Below are positions 3,435-63,548 of a stretch of 64,000 bases of DNA, in pieces. Both the position numbers and the translations under genes were made by a program. The stretch covers positions 14,632,001-14,696,000 of the forward strand of contig OX597828.1 in NCBI GenBank assembly GCA_951406725.2. The letters are read 5' to 3'. Within the stretch, counting starts at the first letter, position 1, and every line of letters starts with the position of its first letter. The DNA is from Octopus vulgaris. Taxonomy: Eukaryota. A model generated the notes under the pieces. That model did no database searches, was not told where the DNA came from, and was given only the letters and a program-made list of their open reading frames with translations.

Positions 3435-3663
3435 AACAAGACGTAATCGGTATTACTGCTTCATATAATAAAGACTTGGTTTATAATATTGGCAGACATC
3501 AATTACCTCGGCATAAAACTCAGTTACGTGAACGAATGGCAAAGAATGATACTGATGACATTTATTCAAGTAACTGAGTTTTATACTCACATAATTAATG
3601 TTTGCCGTTCCTATGACACACCTGTATATTACATAAAAAATGTATATATATATATATATATAT

Positions 3664-3909
3664 AAATTGAAACTGATTTGAAAATCGGAAATCCACCTGA
3701 AGATTGTCATTCAAGACATGAAACAATTGTAGTGGCGGTTTTTTTTTACTTTTTATTAAAATTTTATGTATTGATTAAGTCTTTCCTTGTTTGTTTTGCA
3801 AAATAGTGGTTTTGACTCTAATTAATATTATATAATATTTTACTATAAAATTGGATTTAATCCTAAATCTGATTTTTTCCCTGTAAATTTGGATTTATTC
3901 CCTAATATT

Positions 3910-3912
<3 letters not shown>
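3664..3912 (+). mobile_element. Non-autonomous PLE terminal-repeat-like island embedded in (TA)n
   Basis: Flanked by (TA)n on both sides; near-identical to the copies at 16040-16645; contains a hammerhead motif. Confidence 0.75.
3693..3735 (+). ncRNA. Minimal type I hammerhead ribozyme
   Basis: CCAC-CTGAAGA-t-TGTC(attcaa)GACA-t-GAAA-C-AATT-G-TA-GTGG. Stem I is CCAC/GTGG, stem III is the palindrome ACAATTGT, cleavage triplet GUA. Confidence 0.8.
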
Positions 3913-3996
<84 letters not shown>

Positions 3997-6613: not shown

Positions 6614-6655
<42 letters not shown>

Positions 6656-6817
6656 TTGTATTTTGGGATAGTATTTTTTTTTTGTCAAATAAACACATGC
6701 ACTATAGTATGTGTTTATTCGGCAAAAAAAAAAGAAAAATGACCATCTCGAAATACAACAATATCTGTTTCAACACACGACTTCACATCAGGAATCTTGC
6801 AGCACAAATTCATAAAC

Positions 6818-7265: not shown

Positions 7266-7706
<441 letters not shown>

Positions 7707-8199: not shown

Positions 8200-8569
8200 A
8201 TGTATATATGTATATAGATATATATGGATGTATATGTATATAATTAAGATTCGGTTGAATTAGATACGTCAATTAAGGCACCTTGTTAGATCGATCTAAT
8301 TTGCTCACCTGAACAATATCAGGTGACTATCAAACTCATTTCAGAAATGTTTGTACTTAATATTCCTGCAGTGTATTCAGATAACACGACCCAACTTAGT
8401 GAAGAGACCTGCTCTTGCTTGTCCAGGCATGTACTTTATATAAACATACAAAAATACTTTCTGTAAAATTCCCGAAGTGCAGATTCCAGGGTAGGTGAAT
8501 AAAATATGAGTAAGAAAGATGAAGTCGCTTGAAACGGCCGTTATGAATTGACACCTGTACATCCAGTTT

Positions 8570-8790
8570 CATCCAGTACAAGACATCTCCAACGAGTGAA
8601 AAATACGTAAACATATAAGGACAGACATGTACGGGACAAAATACCAAAAGAAGTCTAACGCCTCCTCAGTTGTCGACTGTTTATTGCTCACGTCCTGTTC
8701 TTACTGTGTATTTTTTGGTATTTTGTCCTGTACTTATCTCTCGTGTGCTTACGTATTTTCCACTCGTTAGTAATGTCCTGTACTTGATGT
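8570..8790. repeat. Diverged inverted repeat next to (TA)n, PLE-like architecture
   Basis: CATCCAGTACAAGACAT...GGACAAAATACCAAAA versus TTTTGGTATTTTGTCC...ATGTCCTGTACTTGATG. Confidence 0.6.
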
Positions 8791-8791
8791 A

Positions 8792-8863
<72 letters not shown>

Positions 8864-8870
<7 letters not shown>

Positions 8871-9418
8871 GAGAAATAACCCCTGTTAAGTAATTCAATA
8901 GTGAAAGACATTATCTATACCATATAGAAAAAAATTTAGATGTACTATAATAAATATTATTCAAAAAATCACTAAATGAAATAAACATTAAATTGACTAC
9001 GCGCGTTTCGTGACTATATCTTCAAATCGATAATAATAAAATAGATACTATTAAAATTAATTCGATTTAAAATTAATTTGATTTTAAAAAATATACCCAC
9101 TCTTCGGGTCTAAAATAAAAATTTTAATCGAATTAGTTTTAATAGTATCGATTTTATTATTATCGATTTAAAGATATAGTCACGAAACACGCGTAGTCAA
9201 TTTAACGTTCATTTAATTTAGTGATTTTTTGAATAATATTTATTATAGTATATTTAAATTTTTTCTATATAGTATAGATAATGTCTTTCACTATTGAATT
9301 GCTTAATAGAGGTTATTTCTCTTAATTATATACATATATTATATATTGTGAAATTTGATTTAGAATTGCTAAATTGAATTTTTCCCTGTAAGTTTGGAAT
9401 TATATTCCCTACTATTAT
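8864..9418. mobile_element. PLE-type inverted-repeat island in (TA)n
   Basis: About 210-bp arms (8864-9075 and 9120-9330); the right arm extends into the shared terminal motif; (TA)n flanks. Confidence 0.8.
8995..9110 (-). ncRNA. Hammerhead variant with long stem II insertion (core CCGAAGA)
   Basis: Minus strand GAC-CCGAAGA-GTGGGTATAT...~70 nt...ATATAGTCAC-GAAAC-GCGC-GTA-GTC; stem III is the palindrome ACGCGCGT. Confidence 0.65.
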
Positions 9419-9967
9419 ACATATATATATATATATATGCAACCATCCAGTTGATGTCTAAATTCCAATAAAAGAGCTTTGTTTTGGGATTGGAAACCGA
9501 CCTTTTCTCTGTTGGTGAGAAAGCTTATAAATAAAACCAGAACGCAAACACACACACACACACACAGCATTCATCCATCTACCCATCAATACATGCATAC
9601 ATGCATACATACATACATACATACATACAGACAGACAGACAGACAGGCAGACAGACAGACATCTGCTACGAAAACCCCAGCTTCTATGGTTAGGCATATT
9701 CACATTTCTACCAATAATAATTGGTGCACTTAGTTTTCTGAGTAAATGACTAAATGACAATCTGGATAAGCTAGGGGTTTCAGAAAAAAAATTAATCAGC
9801 TCACATGCACATTACTAATACAATCTGTAAGCGGAACAATAAGAATATGCAAGACTTTTCTTAAGTTTAAAATGTGTCATTGTTTTTATTTACAACCTTC
9901 CACCGATTGAGCTTTATATCCTTGTTACAAACCAAGTCCTTAGAAGAGTTCAATTAATTAAAATACA

Positions 9968-15177: not shown

Positions 15178-16003
15178 TCAGATAGTCGTTTTGCTCTTGA
15201 CGTGACTAATTACTAGCTATTGTGAGCACTTGACTATTGTTATTTTTTTCTCTTTTCCTAATCGATCAATCAATACTACTTGTTGATGGCAAAGTATTTC
15301 AGAACACAGATTTATAGTACGTTGTGAGAAGGACTAAAATCCGGTTCATTTTCTCTGTAACAATACTGTTTATTTATCGTCAGCCATTTTGTCGATTCTG
15401 CCGATTCGGTTTTGTGATTCTAAAATATTGATATTTCCTGGCAGAAAACCTTTTATTATTTTCTTTCAATTCATTAGAGAAATTTACATTACTTAGAAAC
15501 AAATATGCATCAGCTCCAACCGAAACACATTGTTACACCGTAGAAAATGCCAACGTCTTACATTCTGAGCTCAAAGCCTGGTGAGATTGACTCGCCGCTG
15601 AATCTTTTTGAAGTCCGAAAAATAAAGCAACAGCCATTTATTTAGATCGAAATGACTGCCTATTCCCTCAGCCTCCTCCACCCTCTCACCAAATTTCTGA
15701 CTTTATATCTATGTCAGAAATCCCTATATTATTTTAGCAGGGATCCAGAACCCACCGAGAACAACTCAATCATCCTGCGAGGAACTGATAAAATAAAAAT
15801 TCCTACCTAAATGAACTGGAGTCAGTATAATTGACGATACCTTTCCACGAAATCAACCTTGTGTTATGAACACAACTACATACATACATACATTTATACA
15901 TACATACATACATACATACATACATACATACATACATACATTTATACATACATACATACATACATACATACACACACATATACATATATACATTCATATA
16001 CAT

Positions 16004-16048
<45 letters not shown>

Positions 16049-16220
16049 ATATTAGGGAATAAATCCAAATTTACAGGGAAAAAAATCAGATTTAGGATTA
16101 AATCCAATTTTATAGTAAAATATTATATAATATTAATTAGAGACAAAACCACTATTTTGCAAAACAAACAAGGAAAGACTTAATCAATACATAAAATTTT
16201 AATAAAAAGTAAAAAAACCG

Positions 16221-16263
16221 CCACTACAATTGTTTCATGTCTTGATCGACAATCTTCAGGTGG
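16221..16263 (-). ncRNA. Minimal hammerhead ribozyme
   Basis: Minus strand CCAC-CTGAAGA-tTGTC(gatcaa)GACAt-GAAAC-AATT-GTA-GTGG. Confidence 0.8.
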
Positions 16264-16400
16264 ATTTCCGATTTTCAAGTCAGTTTCAATTTATATATAT
16301 ATATATATAATATTAATTAGAGACAAAACCACTATTTTGCAAAACAAACAAGGAAAGACTTAATCAATACATAAAATTTTAATAAAAAGTAAAAAAAACG

Positions 16401-16443
16401 CCACTACAATTGTTTCATGTCTTGATCGACAATCTTCAGGTGG
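16401..16443 (-). ncRNA. Minimal hammerhead ribozyme (tandem copy)
   Basis: Identical to 16221-16263, 180 bp away. Confidence 0.8.
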
Positions 16444-16512
16444 ATTTCCGATTTTCAAGTCAGTTTCAAATTATGAAGTGCATAATTTGAAACTGACTTG
16501 AAAATCGGAAAT

Positions 16513-16555
16513 CAACCTGAAGATTGTCGATCAAGACATGAAACAATTGTAGTGG
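16513..16555 (+). ncRNA. Minimal hammerhead ribozyme (inverted copy, one stem I mismatch)
   Basis: CAAC-CTGAAGA...GAAAC-AATT-GTA-GTGG. Confidence 0.75.
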
Positions 16556-16639
16556 CGGTTTTTTTACTTTTTATTAAAATTTTATGTATTGATTAAGTCT
16601 TTCCTTGTTTGTTTTGCAAAATAGTGGTTTTGTCTCTAA

Positions 16640-16686
<47 letters not shown>

Positions 16687-16717
16687 ATGAATGTATATAT
16701 TTATATGTGTGTATGTC

Positions 16718-16782
<65 letters not shown>

Positions 16783-17249
16783 GAATGTATATATGTATGT
16801 GTGTGTCTGTGTATGTATGTATGTATGTATGTATAAATGTATGTATGTATGTATGTATGTATGTATGTATGTATAAATGTATGTATGTATGTAGTTGTGT
16901 TCATAACACAAGGTTGATTTCGGGGAAAGGTATCGTCAATTATACTGACTCCAGTTCATTTAGGTAGGAATTTTTATTTTATCAGTTCCTCGCAGGATGA
17001 TTGAGTTGTTCTCGGTGGCTTCTGGATCCCTGCTAAAATAATATAGGGATTTCTGACATAGATATAAAGTCAGAAATATATATATATATATGCTTATATT
17101 AAATAAATTGCTTACATTAAATAAATTGCTTACATTGTCTGCATTAATATAAATAATCCTTTAAAACCATGCAGAAATTAAGCTTCCTCATCAGCTGAGA
17201 GAAAAATCCTTAAATACTAAAGTCTCGACGTAACGTTTCAAGAGCGCAA

Positions 17250-17480
17250 AGTCAATATTTAAATAGAATCTTAAAAGATATGGAAGGCAATAATAATAAA
17301 ATTAATACAAAATGATAAAACCATTTTCTACCAAAGGAAAGGGAATTTAGGTAATACAATTATGAAGTAACTAGTACATATCTTCATAAATCTCCTTTGT
17401 ATTCTTAGAAAATTGTTTTATTTGTATTAATTTTACTTTCGTTGTCTTCCATACGTTTTATGAATTTTAAAAATATATTT
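17250..17480. repeat. Old AT-rich inverted repeat (MITE-like)
   Basis: TATGGAAGGCAA...AAAATTAATACAAA...TTTTCTA versus TAGAAAA...TTTGTATTAATTTT...TTGTCTTCCATA. Confidence 0.55.
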
Positions 17481-18650
17481 ACTTATATCTTTAAATGTCT
17501 AAAAAAAATTAATTTAATATTGTACATATTTCTCTTGTCGATATCAAATCCTATATTTTATAAACATTGTCACTAAAAGCTTTTATTTAGTTTCAGTTTG
17601 TTATATTATTTCTGCTCTATTTTTGTTTTCTAGATTTTTAGCAATAAATATATCAGTTGGGGCTGAGGTAGGGGTAATGAGCATTGATTAGTGTTTTACT
17701 ATTGTACTTTGGCTGTACTTAAGAAGTTAATGTAAGCAGGGTAATATTAATGGGGCTTGGCAAAAAAAAAACAGAACATGTAAAAACATGCCAGGTCATG
17801 TTCAAAACAAAAAATGACTTTTCATACGTGTAACGCTAACGTCTGTCACACGGTATCCTTCTAATAATTTCATATAATCTCCTAATATAATCAGAGCCAC
17901 CCCAGAGAAAATAGAACTGTGATGATAAGCCATGTGACCCCCTGCTTTGATTCTTAGTAGTGGCAGTGGTGGTGGTGGTGGTGGTCATCGTGGTGTTCAA
18001 TTCTGAGACGGTCCTGATCGATTATATCTATGACCAATGGACATTCCAAACGTGACCATTCCAGTGTTCTTTTTTTTTTTCAAATACATTATTTCAAGAA
18101 TCGTAAAACGAACAGCCAACGGAAGGCGGTACCTTGGCCGACTTGTTAGAGAGTAGGATAAAATACTTAGCGATAATTGCTATGACTCTTTGTACTTTGA
18201 GTTCGATTTCCACCAAGATCGGTTTCTTCCTTCTGGGGTCAAAAAGCAGTGGATAAACGAAATTGCTAAAGGGTTCAAACGGGTCATCATGCAGTATTTG
18301 TTCAGGTTCATTGCATTTGACGTCACGCTTTTGATGGCACTGTGCCAAGCCAAGTCAGCCCTTGCTTTGCGTTTCCCTTGGATATCATCTCTGGTATATA
18401 TAGGGGACACTTGCATGCATGGGCAACCTTTTGTCTTTCACAAAGAAAATGCCCATATCTGCGCTTTAGGGAAGGACCTTCCAATTGCACATGCTCACTA
18501 GAACCGTTAACCATCATATATTTCCCTTTTTTTTTCTTTCTTTAAAACTATTATGCTAGGGCGTAACTTGTGAAGAAATTTGGCAGTTATTTCTAGCACT
18601 TAAAGTGGGTACTTGAAGATGTCCTTGTTGGTTTGTGTTCCACGAATGGA

Positions 18651-32782: not shown

Positions 32783-33112
32783 TCTGCTAATCTGCTGTCG
32801 TCTGCTAATCTGCTGTCGTTTGCTAATCTGCTGTCGTCTGCCAATCTGCTGTCGTCTGCTAATCTGCTGTCGTCTGCCAATCTACTGTTGTCTGCTAATC
32901 TGCTGTCGTCTGCTAATCTGCTGTCGTCTGCTAATCTGCTGACATCTGCTAATCTGCTGTCGTCTGCCAATCTGCTGTCGTCTGCTAATCTGCTGTCGTC
33001 TGCTAATCTGCTGTCGTCTGCTAATCTGCTGTCGTCTGCTAATCTGCTGTCGTCTGCTAATCTGCTGTCGTCTGCTAATCTGCTGTCGTCTGTCAATCTG
33101 CTGTCGTCTGCT
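32783..33112. repeat. 18-bp minisatellite (TCTGCTAATCTGCTGTCG), about 18 units
   Basis: Direct inspection; explains the ADDSRL and SANLLS pseudo-ORFs. Confidence 0.95.
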
Positions 33113-37363: not shown

Positions 37364-37621
37364 TGTAGTAAAGCTTGTTTGCAAACATAACATGGTAGTC
37401 CTGGTTTAGGAAGAATGTTGCTGTAATTTAGCCCCAGGAGACGTCGTCTCCAGCTTGCTATACGACACGATCTGTGTCCTTATACTTTCCCTTGTTCGAA
37501 AATATAGAGACGCAGATCCTGTCGTATAGCTAGCTGGATACGATGTCTCCTGGGGCTAAATTACAGCAACATTCGTTCTAAACCAGGACTGCCATGTTAT
37601 GTTGGCAAACAATCTTTACTA
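37364..37621. mobile_element. Palindromic MITE
   Basis: About 110-bp terminal inverted repeats TAGTAAAG.TTGTTTGC.AACATAACATGG... with a short spacer. Confidence 0.8.
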
Positions 37622-37719
37622 CATCCTAAAGCCATGAAGTCGTTTGATGCTCATTCTTGTTTTTGATGGTATAACGGGAAGAGAGCGTAGGGTTGGAGAT
37701 ATGTTGTTGGAGAGTAGAT

Positions 37720-38519: not shown

Positions 38520-39330
38520 GAGGAGAGAGGACGAAACCCATAAACTGACCACAGTCTGTCTACTCTATATCAAAAGCCTCTCGGAAAAGGTACAAAAAAT
38601 ATGCGGTCCAAATGGCATCAGGGATGTATTCAGGAGTAATACAATACATCTCAAATATCTCCTCCAGGTAAAAACCACCCATAGAAGATAATAAGACCAA
38701 AAACTGCGTGTACTCCATCCCATGCAGTTGCGGTAGGGTGTCTCCCCCTTAAAATAAGAGTAAAGGAACATCATAAAGCTGTGATACGAGGGGATATTGA
38801 AAAATCGGGTACAGCCGATCATGTATGGAGAAACGGAGACCATCTTCCCCTGTGGGATGAAGTTAAAATAATAGACAGAGAACGCCACTGGAAAATACGA
38901 AAATTAAAAGAGGCAGCATATATGCTAGGTCACAATAACCTCCTAAGTAGATCTAGTGCAGATATGAATGTAATATGGGAATTAAGAAAAGATAAAATAT
39001 TAGGTTTATAAGCTCAAAAATTAACTCTATAATTGCCCACGGTCTTATAGTGTAGTGGATAAGAGCGTGGGCTACAGACCCTCGGGTTCTGAATTCAATC
39101 TCAAGCAGGAACTTGAGAAATAAAATCAACAAAAAATAACATCAGCAAAAAAGAATACCTTAGGAATGAGAACAGAGTACCCCATTGGTCAAATAAAGGG
39201 TTGGGTTCGAAATTCCACCAGAACACCTGATGAAGGCTGGAAAGTACATCAGCCGAAACATTGTGGCAGCAACAAACAATGTGAGGGCACCTATCCGTCC
39301 ATTGAAAATTATATATTATTTCTAATATTT
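38520..39330 (+). mobile_element. Decayed Penelope/Poseidon-type PLE 3' portion (linker, GIY-YIG, 3' terminal repeat)
   Basis: YIKSLSEKVQKIC...NCVYSIPCSC...IRGDIEKSGTADHVW...WDEVKIIDRERHWKIRKLKEA, followed by a tRNA-like segment and a hammerhead. Confidence 0.85.
39224..39265 (+). ncRNA. Minimal hammerhead ribozyme (one stem III substitution)
   Basis: CAC-CTGATGA-A-GGCTG(gaaagtacat)CAGCC-GAAAC-ATT-GTG. Confidence 0.75.
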
Positions 39331-39620
39331 CGTGAGTATGATTGCCCCCCATTTTGCTTTCCCAAGCGGCAGTTTTTCATGCTCGATTTCAGATGAGCCA
39401 TACAAGATTTGTATCCCCGCTCAATTACTGTAATAATTTATGTTTAATATAGATGTATTTTAGTACTTTTTAATGTTATATTAATTTAATATTTATAAGA
39501 GAAAGGGCAATGGGAAAATTACTTGCTTTAATGAGAAATTTGAGCATGTTTTCATTTTGCCAAGTTTTTAATGGTTGGCGTTAAATTAGTTACCGAGAGC
39601 AACATATACATATATATATA

Positions 39621-41026: not shown

Positions 41027-41410
41027 TAGGGTTAGGTTTAGGGTTAGGGTTAGGGGTTAGGGGTTAGGGTTAGGGTTAGGGTTAGGGTTATAGTTAGGGT
41101 TAGGGTTTAGGGTTAGGGTATAGGGTTTAGGGTTAGGGTTAGGGTTAGAGGGTTAGGGTTAGGGTTAGGGTTAGGGTTAGGGATTAGGGTTGAATGTTTA
41201 GGGTTAGGGTTAGGGGTTAGGGTTAGGGTTAGTGTTAGGGTTAGGGGTAAGGGTTAGGTTTAGGGTTTGGGTTAGTGTTAGGGTTTAGGGTTTGGGTTAG
41301 TGTTAGGGTTTAGGGTTTTTGTTAGGGATAGGGTTCGGGTTAGAGGTTAGGGTTAGTGTTAGGGTTGTTAGGGTTAGGGTTAGGTTTAGGGTTAGGATTA
41401 GGGCTAGGGT

Positions 41411-41447
<37 letters not shown>

Positions 41448-41627
41448 GTTAGGGTTAGGTTTGTGTTAGGGTTGTTGTGTTAGGGTTAGGGTTAGATTTA
41501 GGGGTTAGGGTTTTTGTTAGAGTTAGTGGTTAGGGTTAGGTTTAGGGTTTGGGTTAGTGTTAGGGTTTAGGGTTTTTGTTATGGTTAGGGTTCGGGTTAG
41601 AGGTTATGGTTAGTGTTAGGGTTAGGT

Positions 41628-41662
<35 letters not shown>

Positions 41663-41993
41663 GGTTAGGGTATAGGGTTTAGGGTTAGGGTTAGGGTTAG
41701 GGTTAGAGGGTTAGGTTAGGGTTAGGGTTAGGGTTAGGTTAGGGTTAGGGTTAGGGTTAGGGATTTAGGGTTGAAGGGTCTAGGGTTTAGGGTTAGGGTT
41801 AGGGTTAGGGGTTAGGGTTAGGTTTAGTGTTAGGTTTGTATTAGGGTTAGGTTTAGGGTTAGGGTTAGGGTTAGGGGTTAGGGTTAGGGTTAGTGTTAGG
41901 GTTAGGTTTAGGGTTTGGGTTAGTGTTAGGGTTTAGGGTTTTTGTTAGGGTTAGGGTTCGGGTTAGAGGTTATGGTTAGTGTTAGGGTTAGGG

Positions 41994-42031
<38 letters not shown>

Positions 42032-42354
42032 ATAGGGTTTAGGGTTAGGGTTAGGGTTAGGGTTAGAGGGTTAGGTTAGGGTTAGAGGGTTAGGGTTAGG
42101 GTAAGGGTTAGAGTTAGAGTTAGGGATTAGGGTTGAATGTCTAGGGTTTAGGGTTAGGGTTAGGGTTAGGGGTTAGGGTTAGGTTTAGTGTTAGGTTTGT
42201 ATTAGGGTTAGGTTTAGGGTTAGGGTTAGGGTTAGGGGTTAGGGTTAGGGTTAGTGTTAGGGTTAGGTTTAGGGTTTGGGTTAGTGTTAGGGTTTAGGGT
42301 TTTTGTTAGGGTTAGGGTTCGAGTTAGAGGTTAGGGTTAGTGTTAGGGTTAGGG

Positions 42355-42395
<41 letters not shown>

Positions 42396-42594
42396 GGTTA
42401 GGGTTAGGGTTAGGTTTTAGAGTTAGGGTTAGGGTTAGGGTTAGGGGTTAGGGTTAGGTTTAGTGTTAGGGTTGTGTTAGGGTTAGGGGTTAGGGTTAGG
42501 TTTAGGGTTTAGGTTAGTGTTAGGGTTTAGGGTTTTTGTTAGGTTTAGGGTTCGAGTTAGAGGTTAGGGTTAGTGTTAGGGTTAGGGTTAGGGT
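41027..42594 (+). repeat. Interstitial telomeric array (TTAGGG)n with variant units
   Basis: About 1.57 kb of TTAGGG interspersed with TTAGTG, TTTAGGG, TTCGGG and TTAGAGG; unique DNA on both sides. Confidence 0.97.
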
Positions 42595-43074: not shown

Positions 43075-43845
43075 AGCGCGTGTGTGATTCGAGAAAAATT
43101 TGGTTGCTATTTCCAGCAAATGTAATGACCACACAGCGATTTCCCCGTCGGCTCGTCAGCCATTTAACGTGGTCTGAATGTGTGGGTGAAGACGCCGGAT
43201 AAAATGGTTTGTGTGTTATAACACTCATCATGTATTAATCTATCAAAACAGTTTCATTTTTGTTTCATTTTCCTGGAACGTGTAGGAGGGAGGTGGAGCG
43301 AGGGGTAGGGATCTCTGAAACATTGACTTCTATAATACACTTGTTGATACGGCAACGCTTAAACAGAAAGACAAATAAAAGAGCCATTTTAAAACTACAG
43401 AGTACGGTATATAACCCCTCATAACTAAAAAGATTTTGCTGCGTTTTAAGGGCTATTTAGCTATTATTTTTAGCACATCTCATGACCACCTCATACCCTC
43501 CTCGTGTGTTTGTTAGTATGACGTATTGATGTTTTTCCATATCTTTCTCCCCATACACACATTTAATGCTGAGATTTATTGCTGAGATGTAAGCTAAAAA
43601 TTCGGACTTCATATTTTAAACTGTGATTTTAAAAAAACTCTCTTTTTTCTTTTTTTTTTTTTAGCCTCGTGAATTCCTGTGTATAGAGAATACAAATTCG
43701 CGAAAATTTTCTGAAAATTCAAAAAAAATAAAAGTAGTTATGAGGGGTTGTATGCCGTGCGTAAGGCAGAATTCCGCCGAGTGGTCGACTCCCTATGTAA
43801 TAAACAGATAAGAAAACCTTAGCTTTATAAACAATATTTCGTGGA

Positions 43846-46448: not shown

Positions 46449-46663
46449 TAAAAACGGTAAGATAACAAAAGAAAGAAAGAGACCTCAATATTATGTAAAT
46501 AGAGGAAATTTATCTGTAAAATAATATGTGACAATTATTCGGTAGCCAAGATAAAACTCTGAGTTTCGGATGCTGAAGATAACCGAAGAGATGGTGTTCT
46601 GGATTTCCACTTCGGCATCCGAAACTCAGAGTTTTATCTTAGCTATTGAATAATTGTCCCATA

Positions 46664-46667
<4 letters not shown>
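46445..46667. mobile_element. PLE-type inverted-repeat island in (TA)n
   Basis: Arms ~46523-46578 and 46610-46667 are reverse complements. Confidence 0.75.
46576..46640 (+). ncRNA. Hammerhead variant (core CCGAAGA)
   Basis: AAGATAA-CCGAAGA-GATG...CATC-c-GAAA-CTC-A-GAG-TT-TTATCTT; 7-bp stem I. Confidence 0.7.
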
Positions 46668-46723
<56 letters not shown>

Positions 46724-53304: not shown

Positions 53305-53675
53305 AAAGGACTTCCTTTTGTAACCCCTACCACCATATTTTCTTTTTTAATATTACACATGATAGAAAATTGATTCCCTACCATGTTTTATAATAATAAT
53401 GATGAGAAAGTCATAAAAAGTCACAAAAATTAAGAATTTCTACTCATGTGTCGGCAAATTTCAGAGTTAGGCAATTTAGATCTTAACGTTAGGCAAATTG
53501 AGACATGAATATATATAATTCAGAACTGAATTTTTTTCATGGAAATTCTTAATTTTTATGACTGTCTCATCATTATTATTATAAGACATGGTAGGAAATC
53601 AATTTTCCAACATGTGTAATATTAAAAAGATAAAAAATTAGGGGGTGAGGTGGGGTACAAAAGTAAGTCTTTCCA
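53305..53675. mobile_element. Long inverted repeat, MITE-like
   Basis: TTAATATTACACATG..GAAAATTGATT.CCTACCATG... versus CATGGTAGGAAATCAATTTTC..CATGTGTAATATTAA. Confidence 0.7.
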
Positions 53676-61682: not shown

Positions 61683-62396
61683 TATTTCCCGAAGGGGGCA
61701 CATTGTGACGACGTAAAAGAAAAGCAACCAATATTTATGTCACTGCAGTAGACGTATCATTTCTGACAAGGTTACAGTGTCCTTTGTGTTATTTATTTTC
61801 AATATTATGGCAATGTTCACGACTTGGTGAAACAGTTGAGACTGCTCACTTGCAATGTTTTTTCTTCATATTCTGGCAAAAAAACCCACATTGTTTTGAC
61901 ATTTTAAACCTCCAATGCAACGAAGAAAAATTATATAATTTTTTTACCAGAAATATGACACAAACGATGCTAAAAAAACTAATCTTTGGCAATATGACAG
62001 TATGCTAATAATAACTGAACAGAATGTTTTTATTCATGTTTTACAAGATGTACCTAATTCGTTTTGAAGACAGGAAACTCATGATATCCTGAGGCATCAA
62101 CCCATGATATCCTGAAGCATCTTATAACAATAATAGGAGTTAGTGCACTCATCCATTCTCACACAGCATTTGCTAACATTGAACATTTTTATGCAGGTTT
62201 TCTAAGATGTACTTAAACCATTTCTTTGTGTAAGAAAGAGAATTGTTCATATATTTTTTCAAACTCTTTTACTCTTTTACTTGTTTCAGTCATTTGACTG
62301 CGGCCATGCAGTCAAATCGACCCCAGGACTTATTCTTTGGAAGCCTAGTACTTATTCTAGTACTTATCACAGGCATACAAACACACACACATATAC

Positions 62397-63548
62397 TACG
62401 CCAACTCTGTAATGGGATACTTAGAAGAACAACTCTACCAAGAGGTGGAGGTAAACTATGGCACTGGATTTAGAAAGTATATTGAAAGGGCATGGAAGAG
62501 ATACCTAGACGACTGTTTCATAATCTGGACAGAATCTCTAAATACTCTGGAAGAGTTCAATATCCTCCTGAACAACCTACACCCATCTCTCAAATTTACA
62601 AAGGAGATGAGTAGTACCAAATTACCATTCCTGGATATAATGGTAATTAAAAAAGACACCACCATCACCACAGATATATACTATAAACACACAGACACAC
62701 ATCAATACCTAAATTTTAAGTCGTGCCATCCACCACATACAAAACGTAACATCCCATACTGCCTAGCCAGAAGAATTTGTACTATTGTAGAAGATGCAAA
62801 TATCAGGAACAAACGCCTAATAGAACTAAGAGAATTTTTGCTCAAACAAAAATACCCATCTCTACTTATAGAAAATGGCATACAGCGGGCTATAAAAATA
62901 CCTATACAACAACTTAGGACAACCCAAGGAAGAGGAAAACAAGAACAAGTCATACCATTCATAGTGACACACAACCCATGTCACCAGAATATCTTCAACA
63001 TTGCCAAAGCAAACCTACCAATCATTGCCCAAAGTAATGAATTAAAAGACATAATCAAGGATCGAGCTATGGTGCTTAGTAAAAGACAGCCTAAAAACTT
63101 GAAAACATTACTAACAAAGGCAAAATTTGACCTCAGCAACAAAGACCAAACATTCACGGTATCTAAATGCAATGATAGCCGATGTGGCACATGCCAATTC
63201 ATACATACCGGTCAATATATAAACACAAAAACCGGGAAAATATTCACAAACGCGAATATGAACTGCAAAAGCAGAAATTTAATTTACTGCATCAAATGCC
63301 CAAATTGTGAAGAAATATATGTAGGTCAGACGGGAAACGCACTATTAGAACGCTCACGTGTACACCGGCAACAGATTAGAGACCCAGAGGTCCGTCAGAT
63401 ACCTTTGAGTAACCACCTAGCAACATGTGGTCGGAAAATATATATAATATTTCCATTCTACAAATTACACAGCCCAAGTGAAATCGAGAGGAAAATCAGA
63501 GAAAAGAATTTTATTGATAAATTCGAACCCAAGCTAAATAAGCAATAA
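62397..63548 (+). CDS. 5'-truncated Penelope-like retroelement ORF (RT C-terminal half, Zn-finger linker, GIY-YIG endonuclease), Neptune-like
   Basis: YANSVMGYLEE, WKRYLDDCF, LPFLD, YYKHTDTHQYLNFKSCHP, KCNDSRCGTC, NLIYCIKCPNCEEIYVGQT...R...H, REKNFI...LN. No stops or frameshifts over ~383 codons. The ATG at 62412 is internal. Confidence 0.93.
   Translation, partial: YANSVMGYLEEQLYQEVEVNYGTGFRKYIERAWKRYLDDCFIIWTESLNTLEEFNILLNNLHPSLKFTKEMSSTKLPFLDIMVIKKDTTITTDIYYKHTDTHQYLNFKSCHPPHTKRNIPYCLARRICTIVEDANIRNKRLIELREFLLKQKYPSLLIENGIQRAIKIPIQQLRTTQGRGKQEQVIPFIVTHNPCHQNIFNIAKANLPIIAQSNELKDIIKDRAMVLSKRQPKNLKTLLTKAKFDLSNKDQTFTVSKCNDSRCGTCQFIHTGQYINTKTGKIFTNANMNCKSRNLIYCIKCPNCEEIYVGQTGNALLERSRVHRQQIRDPEVRQIPLSNHLATCGRKIYIIFPFYKLHSPSEIERKIREKNFIDKFEPKLNKQ

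Follow-up and report, generated by a model that had tools for sequence, protein, structure and literature searches.

Architecture of the locus

The locus lies in a window of 64,000 nucleotides of Octopus vulgaris DNA (contig OX597828.1), the whole stretch that was analysed and from whose first letter all positions below are counted; the window is AT-rich, microsatellite-dense animal DNA with zero N. The locus is characterized by two inverted repeats: an inner pair (16310-16475 / 16481-16646; 166 nt, 99%, spacer 5 nt) nested in an outer pair (15693-16003 / 16767-17077; 311 nt, 94%). A preliminary description had presented it as a 1.4-kb palindrome. The two nested repeats are real, but the palindrome is not continuous, with ~270 bp found only on the left and ~90 bp only on the right. 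The arms, the 180-bp spacing of the tandem units (16124-16294 and 16304-16474) and the positions of the hammerhead cores bear out the arrangement given there, of two tandem units on the minus strand and one inverted unit on the plus strand around ~16478. The components of the locus, and the one solo copy of its unit, are as follows.

15557..15727, plus strand: decayed SINE-like copy spanning the outer breakpoint at 15693 (profile from other copies, E 4e-9)
15693..15721, no strand: perfect hairpin with a stem of 9 bp and a loop of 11 nt, starting at the outer breakpoint (+/-2 nt); fold z -3.5
15693..16005, plus strand: native flank, 185 nt of non-microsatellite sequence and a compound (TACA)n microsatellite (sequence, profile alignment)
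16006..16035, no strand: (TA)n, putative left part of the insertion target (sequence)
16036..16125, minus strand: ~90-nt tail, left arm only (alignment to the tail of the solo copy)
16124..16291, minus strand: unit 1, hammerhead motif 16221-16263, 5' end resembling the solo copy
16292..16309, no strand: short (TA)n between units 1 and 2 (sequence)
16310..16475, minus strand: unit 2, without tail, hammerhead motif 16401-16443, one private substitution (16398)
16476..16480, no strand: 5-nt spacer at the centre of the inner palindrome, putative snap-back loop
16481..16646, plus strand: unit 3, inverted, tailless; hammerhead motif at 16513-16555, its stem I disrupted at 16514
16643..16674, no strand: (TA)n at the end of unit 3
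16675..17077, minus strand: derived inverted copy of the left flank, 403 nt, including ~90 nt of duplicated microsatellite module; non-microsatellite part 16893-17077
17076..17091, no strand: outer junction, 2-nt AT microhomology into (AT)n, the presumed right part of the original target
3665..3911, plus strand: solo copy, unit and tail, in another (TA)n tract with unrelated flanks (sequence search and alignment)

Read from the centre outward, the left arm consists of unit 2, a short TA stretch, unit 1, the ~90-nt tail, TA and flank, and the right arm of unit 3, TA and flank. The left-only sequence is unit 1 together with its tail (16036-16291), and the right-only sequence is the duplicated microsatellite module. 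In total the arms differ at 4 of 350 non-microsatellite bases, in addition to differences in microsatellite structure: units 2 and 3 differ at 2 of 165 nt, and the flank arms outside the microsatellite at 2 of 185; unit 1 differs from each of the other units at 1 of 159 nt. Both sides therefore carry the same flank, as had been claimed, although it is not the unique sequence it had been taken for but a decayed SINE-like repeat. The extent of the duplication, put earlier at ~330 bp, also stands, the right side mirroring ~340 bp of the left flank. At the TA junction a single T of unit 2 is missing from unit 3. The centre is a perfect stem around a loop of 5 nt; no trace of TA is left there, and the arms end at one and the same base. 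The outer join has a microhomology of 2 nt (AT) with the (AT)n tract at 17076-17091, in keeping with the earlier reading of the outer breakpoint as a hairpin followed by (TA)n. No reading frame crosses either breakpoint in a six-frame translation of both flanks. The locus is of no evident function; it has the look of a real, locus-specific variant of a known insertion type, at a single site in repeat-rich non-coding DNA.

The repeat unit and its hammerhead motifs

The tail is restricted to the left arm and the solo copy (98.9% over 89 nt to 3828-3915), and the solo copy as a whole differs from unit 1 plus tail by 4 substitutions and 2 internal indels. At the 5' end one version is common to unit 1 and the solo copy, and another to units 2 and 3. 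TA tracts adjoin all four copies. Since the solo copy consists of unit and tail between unrelated flanks, the mobile piece would be ~250 bp long and would exclude the mirrored flank; the possibility, raised in the preliminary description, that the flank belongs to the element consensus elsewhere is not borne out. A distant relative (72-75%) of the 3' half of the unit and of the tail is found at 9272-9438, within the palindrome 8866-9330. An interpretation as a MITE, a two-armed whole moving between terminal inverted repeats, is contradicted by the lone arm with tail at 3665-3911.

On sequence features, the unit is likely a non-autonomous Penelope-like (PLE) terminal repeat: the locus shows the direct and inverted head-to-head repeats, the one-sided tail, the hammerhead motif and the (TA)n target by which PLE pLTRs are recognized. 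No member of the unit family in the window has an ORF attached to it, so the assignment to PLEs is based on the hammerhead motif, the tail, the layout and the TA target. Within the window, comparison of the unit with the PLE-type ORF fragments at 38685-39011 and 62361-63548 gave no significant link, and its similarity to the hammerhead region near 39241 is not significant (E 4.8). The PLEs of A. vaga are described as having two pLTRs in direct and one in inverted orientation, an optional one-sided tail and junction palindromes (PMC3846280), and Pen2a and Pen3a are the closest in plan, with two direct units and one inverted unit, head-to-head, and a junction palindrome. The tail at one end, the (TA)n target and the hammerhead in the repeat are likewise found in A. 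vaga and in the schemes for Naiad, Neptune and Poseidon (PMC8557442). In contrast to PLE insertions, the present locus has no ORF between its repeats, its tail is ~90 nt rather than 30-40 nt (PMC8557442), and a short direct target duplication is not readable in TA. The principal difference is that its inverted arm runs into ~340 bp of its own target flank, a feature absent from the parts of these two descriptions drawn on here (PMC3846280; PMC8557442).

A motif scan places hammerhead cores at 16439 (minus), 16259 (minus), 16517 (plus) and 3697 (plus). The core bases and the NUH cleavage triplet, which is GUA, are present in all copies, and in geometry helix I has 4 bp, helix II has 4 bp and a basal U-U, and helix III has 2 bp and is closed by a palindromic tetraloop. 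Three of the four copies pass a stem scan, and unit 3 fails it because a C-to-A substitution private to that unit (16514) disrupts its stem I. Across the window the core pattern was matched 13 times where 2.85 matches would be expected, a count that 0 of 100 shuffles reach, and four of the 13 matches are the unit copies. Matches at 43140, 45089, 58370, 59407 and 61613 failed the stem scan. Rfam returned no family at the gathering score over the whole window, no hammerhead family among the best 150 of 254 matches at E<=1, and no hammerhead among the 4 matches at E<=10 in 16040-16400. Hence, the ribozyme call rests on motif and fold geometry: the hammerhead identity proposed earlier stands for the core motif in all units, but not for an intact stem I in unit 3 or for a match in Rfam. 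The microRNA matches in Rfam lie far below their gathering scores and are accounted for by palindromes and microsatellites.

The motifs resemble the minimal type-I metazoan PLE hammerheads (PMC4209133) in the core bases, the 4-bp helix I, the 2-bp helix III and the palindromic loop, as well as in the occurrence of motif pairs on opposite strands 100-700 bp apart. They differ in helix II, which is 4 bp long with U-U at the base in all four copies in place of the G10.1-C11.1 pair described there as highly conserved, and the present motifs are known from sequence. An axolotl hammerhead with U-U in this position has been reported (PMC7229834).

The tandem pair had been taken for the configuration needed for dimeric cleavage and release of a unit-length RNA. 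The geometry agrees with this: cuts are predicted after 16405 (unit 2) and 16225 (unit 1), which would release exactly 180 nt; helix III and its loop form an 8-nt self-complementary stretch that suits a dimer; and two isolated 43-nt motifs cofold into a double hammerhead as their minimum (-20.2 vs 2 x -7.4 kcal/mol). However, the energy gain is not unusual, 181 of 300 shuffles being as good, and in the real transcript the double-hammerhead fold is unfavourable, at +4.9 kcal/mol (16443-16221) to +10.8 kcal/mol (16478-16124) relative to the ensemble, these energies being computed without tertiary contacts, magnesium or protein. For single motifs the hammerhead is not the minimum-energy fold and its stability is no better than that of shuffles (z -0.34 to 0.65, four of four). 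A plus-strand transcript across both arms (16124-16660) folds into a hairpin of -287 kcal/mol. Minimal PLE hammerheads are described as cleaving weakly in vitro (PMC4209133), and hammerhead cleavage in an anole PLE as protein-assisted, with hammerhead mutants having no effect on insertion in vitro (PMC11167929). Judged from these models, dimer cleavage by the tandem pair is possible, but the product would not be a unit-length RNA, as 180 nt is not the unit length of the mobile copy (~250 nt with tail). As it lacks a tail, it could not be the template of tail-bearing copies either. Dimer cleavage is probably not what built the locus, and in this the ribozyme was probably a passenger rather than an agent.

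There is a comparable likeness to the non-LTR retrozymes, which are non-coding, low-GC tandems with a type-I hammerhead in each unit (PMC7229834; bioRxiv 10.64898/2026.07.22.740005). The predicted 180-nt monomer falls within their range of 170-400 nt (same sources), and units 1 and 2 follow one another in tandem and each has a complete type-I hammerhead, which makes up the required minimum of two. In contrast to retrozymes, the locus has only two tandem units with unlike 5' ends, the tail of the dispersed copy lies outside the monomer, and the family is known from DNA alone; nor is a canonical hammerhead with loop-loop contacts found, helix I being of 4 bp against the canonical 6. The view of animal retrozymes as non-autonomous PLE derivatives (bioRxiv 10.64898/2026.07.22.740005) fits the unit and has no bearing on the flank.

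Other palindromes and Penelope-like remains in the window

A local inverted-repeat scan of the window returned ten candidates, the present locus included. Five of the others are TA-bracketed, head-to-head inverted repeats:

3491-3606
6650-6764
7502-7655
8866-9330
46519-46669

The arms of these five are 74-92% identical. Extra sequence is present on one side only in four of them (54-90 nt) and on both sides in the fifth (63 and 36 nt); three contain hammerhead-like half motifs; mirrored outer flanks occur in none of the five, and further copies of these palindrome families were not found in the window. By this comparison of sequences, the head-to-head, one-tailed layout in (TA)n appears to be ordinary in the genome from which the window comes, and the mirrored flank to be the exception. 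The centre of the palindrome at 46519-46669 apparently coincides with the would-be helix II of a hammerhead, as though a cDNA had snapped back there. Four inverted repeats without TA brackets (8565-8794, 17249-17484, 37364-37623, 53306-53672) are outside the count of mirrored flanks; those at 37364-37623, 53306-53672 and 8565-8794 are possibly MITEs or older fold-backs.

A plus-strand, stop-to-stop frame of 395 aa at 62361-63548 contains a GIY-YIG domain (Pfam E 9e-6). The ORF is of a 5'-truncated PLE type, with the end of the RT and a CX4CXXC linker before the GIY-YIG core, an arrangement that Neptune and Nematis PLEs are described as having (PMC8557442). RT and GIY-YIG domains are found in the relatives of this ORF, and those with a name come mostly from molluscs (best 120 of 281 matches); among the matches listed an Octopus sinensis protein has the highest identity, 81% over 194 aa. 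No terminal repeat was recognized after this ORF. Recently active Penelope-like families are described for Octopus vulgaris, at 31 families and 336 insertions (PMC13282606). At 38685-39396 (plus strand) a short GIY-YIG-like frame with no Pfam match is followed by a hammerhead core motif at 39227; the segment is possibly the 3' end of another PLE. Two further arrays are present: ~253 degenerate copies of a telomere-type hexamer in mid-window (41027-42594), directly after a TA-rich microsatellite, and an 18-bp tandem array of 18 copies (32783-33112; 93%) that is open in both directions.

Origin of the mirrored flank

The flank and the DNA to its left are decayed members of the commonest short repeat of the window (nhmmer), which we read as SINE-like. 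BLASTN over the window did not recover any further copy of the flank, whose repeat origin became visible only with the more sensitive nhmmer, and elsewhere in the window the flank was not found above the level of the decayed repeat. Besides the copy that spans 15693, a second remnant (15770-15872) matches the same profile. The profile was built from 9 of the 16 hits outside the locus, those that reach the 3' part. It gives 23.7 bits to the native left context, 14.7 to its upstream part alone and -6.1 to the right-arm context, and when the 43 nt past the breakpoint are shuffled, 0 of 200 versions match the real score or extent. The old repeat is thus continuous across 15693 on the left and starts abruptly on the right, which marks the left arm as native and the right arm as the copy. 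As the left arm predates the event, the flank is not part of the element.

The breakpoint lies at the base of a hairpin. Perfect stems of this kind start at 24 of 56,714 eligible window positions (~0.04%), two of these being the breakpoint hairpin and its copy, and for a feature picked after the fact the coincidence suggests that the hairpin had a role. Since the entire hairpin was copied, the stalling of a polymerase before a template hairpin fits badly; the release of a new 3' end as it folded on itself would fit.

The reading we favour, with modest confidence, is that snap-back synthesis from a PLE cDNA ran into the flank, came off at the 9-bp hairpin and was attached to the far TA by the 2-nt microhomology. 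A PLE endonuclease and RT acting in trans would cut the TA tract and prime cDNA from the left end, giving the minus-strand units; the 3' end of the cDNA would then pair back through ~3 bp around the loop at 16476-16480 and extend on its own strand, giving unit 3. Normally the new strand, on reaching the AT-rich end of the unit, would switch to the TA of the other DNA end, leaving a one-tailed palindrome such as those at the five other sites. Here, (TA)n being self-complementary, it would instead have continued on the TA of its own side and copied ~340 nt of flank; past 15693 its new 3' end would fold into the 9-bp hairpin, leave the template and join the right (AT)n through AT. In the DNA-templated part, either the PLE RT or a host polymerase would fit. 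The lack of unit 1 and the tail in the right arm demands an extra step of this model: either the strand made a jump between TA tracts, out of the short and into the long one, which is favoured by the one-tailed layout of the other palindromes, or unit 1 and its tail were inserted later, as a solo copy, into the left TA tract, which is favoured by the solo-like ends of unit 1.

Fold-back copying of host DNA, one of the two origins put forward in the preliminary description, is supported by the native polarity of the left arm, the hairpin centre with its 5-nt loop and the microhomology: the locus holds an inverted copy of break-adjacent DNA, of known polarity, with a far microhomology of 2 nt, within the 0-5 nt by which such inversions are recognized. 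The 5'-end variant common to units 2 and 3, which neither unit 1 nor the solo copy has, supports a snap-back centre. The divergence is the same between element arms (2 of 165) as between flank arms (2 of 185), which is what a single event predicts, in a comparison of low power, and the GIY-YIG ORF fragment of PLE type in the same window counts for a PLE-based fold-back. Against it count the T missing from unit 3 at the TA junction and the length of the mirrored flank, which exceeds that of the local fold-backs of yeast.

Parallels come from other systems. In A. vaga, self-priming on an antisense template was proposed from the junction palindromes (PMC3846280). R2 insertions show snap-back of cDNA onto cDNA or nearby target DNA (PMC11371274), and for L1 three insertions are described that contain inversions and three that contain genomic DNA copied from a local template (PMC11702581); in both, as proposed here, the cDNA 3' end primes DNA-templated synthesis before the far junction is made. 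These are products of other retroelement proteins in cultured human cells, whereas the present locus occurs in nature, is apparently fixed and has a self-complementary microsatellite at both junctions. At yeast breaks, fold-back, synthesis, unwinding and capture by the other end are described, with a median microhomology of 2 bp (PMC11724301). The local fold-back inversions of that study are alike in fold-back priming, strand release and capture with 0-5 bp of microhomology, and differ in being 2 to ~150 bp long, against ~340 bp here, and in involving no retroelement.

A later repair by the host, separate from transposition, would give the same product: a break in the right TA of an existing one-tailed palindrome, pairing of the units that brings the broken TA end onto the left TA, and fold-back copying of the flank by a host polymerase. 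Long palindromes and TA tracts are break-prone, and since unit 3 pairs with either unit and TA with TA, the missing unit 1 and tail are explained without a jump; the yeast mechanism shows, moreover, that no retroelement is required (PMC11724301). We nevertheless hold this to be unlikely: the five other palindromes, with arms of 74-92%, show no such event, and the equal divergence of element and flank arms suggests no long gap between the two, even if 2 against 2 differences have little power. Insertion of the entire 1385-bp block in one piece, with the flank belonging to the element, deserves hardly any credence. The arms do have a common end point, and AT is available for priming at either end, but the left breakpoint lies inside a continuous old repeat copy, which excludes it, and the flank of the solo copy differs.

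The other origin put forward earlier, PLE-mediated 3' transduction, would here have to take place in cis: an RNA reading from a minus-strand unit through into the flank, inserted next to where it came from, with reverse transcription starting from the base of the RNA stem-loop at 15693 and primed by the right TA end. The flank is on the 3' side of the units, the anole PLE begins reverse transcription internally in a stem-loop (PMC11167929), and A. vaga PLEs capture host DNA between pLTRs (PMC3846280). The fit is poor all the same, and we think this distinctly improbable: the RNA of the present left arm would include the tail and unit 1, both absent from the right arm, and reinsertion would have to be into the tract adjacent to the source, inverted, ending at the very base of unit 2 and with no central TA. 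Transduction is recognized by a new locus colinear with the source transcript, whereas this copy adjoins its source in inverted orientation, and in the rest of the window nothing matches the flank better than the decayed repeats do. There is a similarly small chance of an assembly or read artefact, be it a fold-back chimera or two haplotypes joined inverted through a real inner palindrome. An arm difference of ~1% is also plausible as allelic, and palindromes beside TA tracts are hard to assemble, as noted for PLEs (PMC8557442). Yet a fold-back read would mirror the tail and unit 1 as well; a repeat-driven misjoin leaves unexplained the return to unrelated DNA at 17078 through 2 nt of homology; and 4 of 350 non-microsatellite bases, as well as the microsatellite structure, differ between the arms, in a window without N.

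The origin of the tandem and inverted ends of PLEs is stated to be open (PMC8557442), and the second-strand steps of the anole PLE are described as not validated (PMC11167929); it is as a clue to this step of integration that the locus is of value. A mirror that extends beyond the element is more than RNA-templated priming at the second end can provide by itself, and calls for DNA-templated fold-back or a read-through RNA of the same locus. By analogy, the one-tailed layout of the other palindromes could equally stem from priming at both DNA ends. The anole PLE extends both strands in vitro. A search, mainly of the open literature and by title and opening of the abstract, found no report of a PLE insertion with an inverted copy of its target flank, though Figs S9 and S10 of PMC11702581 may hold parallels. 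It is conceivable, if on the doubtful side, that mirrored flanks are a recurrent and overlooked by-product of PLE integration into (TA)n, the inverted pLTR arising through DNA-templated snap-back of the cDNA. Owing to the self-complementarity of TA, the strand would at times settle on its own side and copy hundreds of host bases in inverted form. Were this so, loci with mirrored flanks would be natural records that decide between snap-back and two-end priming for inverted pLTRs, would, if common, offer a genome-scale test of the snap-back model, and would be a steady supply of long host-sequence hairpins in TA-rich genomes such as those of octopuses.

Two minor features adjoin the outer breakpoint and junction. 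The hairpin at 15693-15721 is more perfect than the equivalent stretch in 9 other copies of the old repeat, and this extra perfection may reflect an earlier quasi-palindrome correction. To the right of the outer junction (17092-17484) are an 18-bp tandem (17091-17136) and a 70% palindrome (17249-17484), and the DNA there may be an older TA-anchored element.
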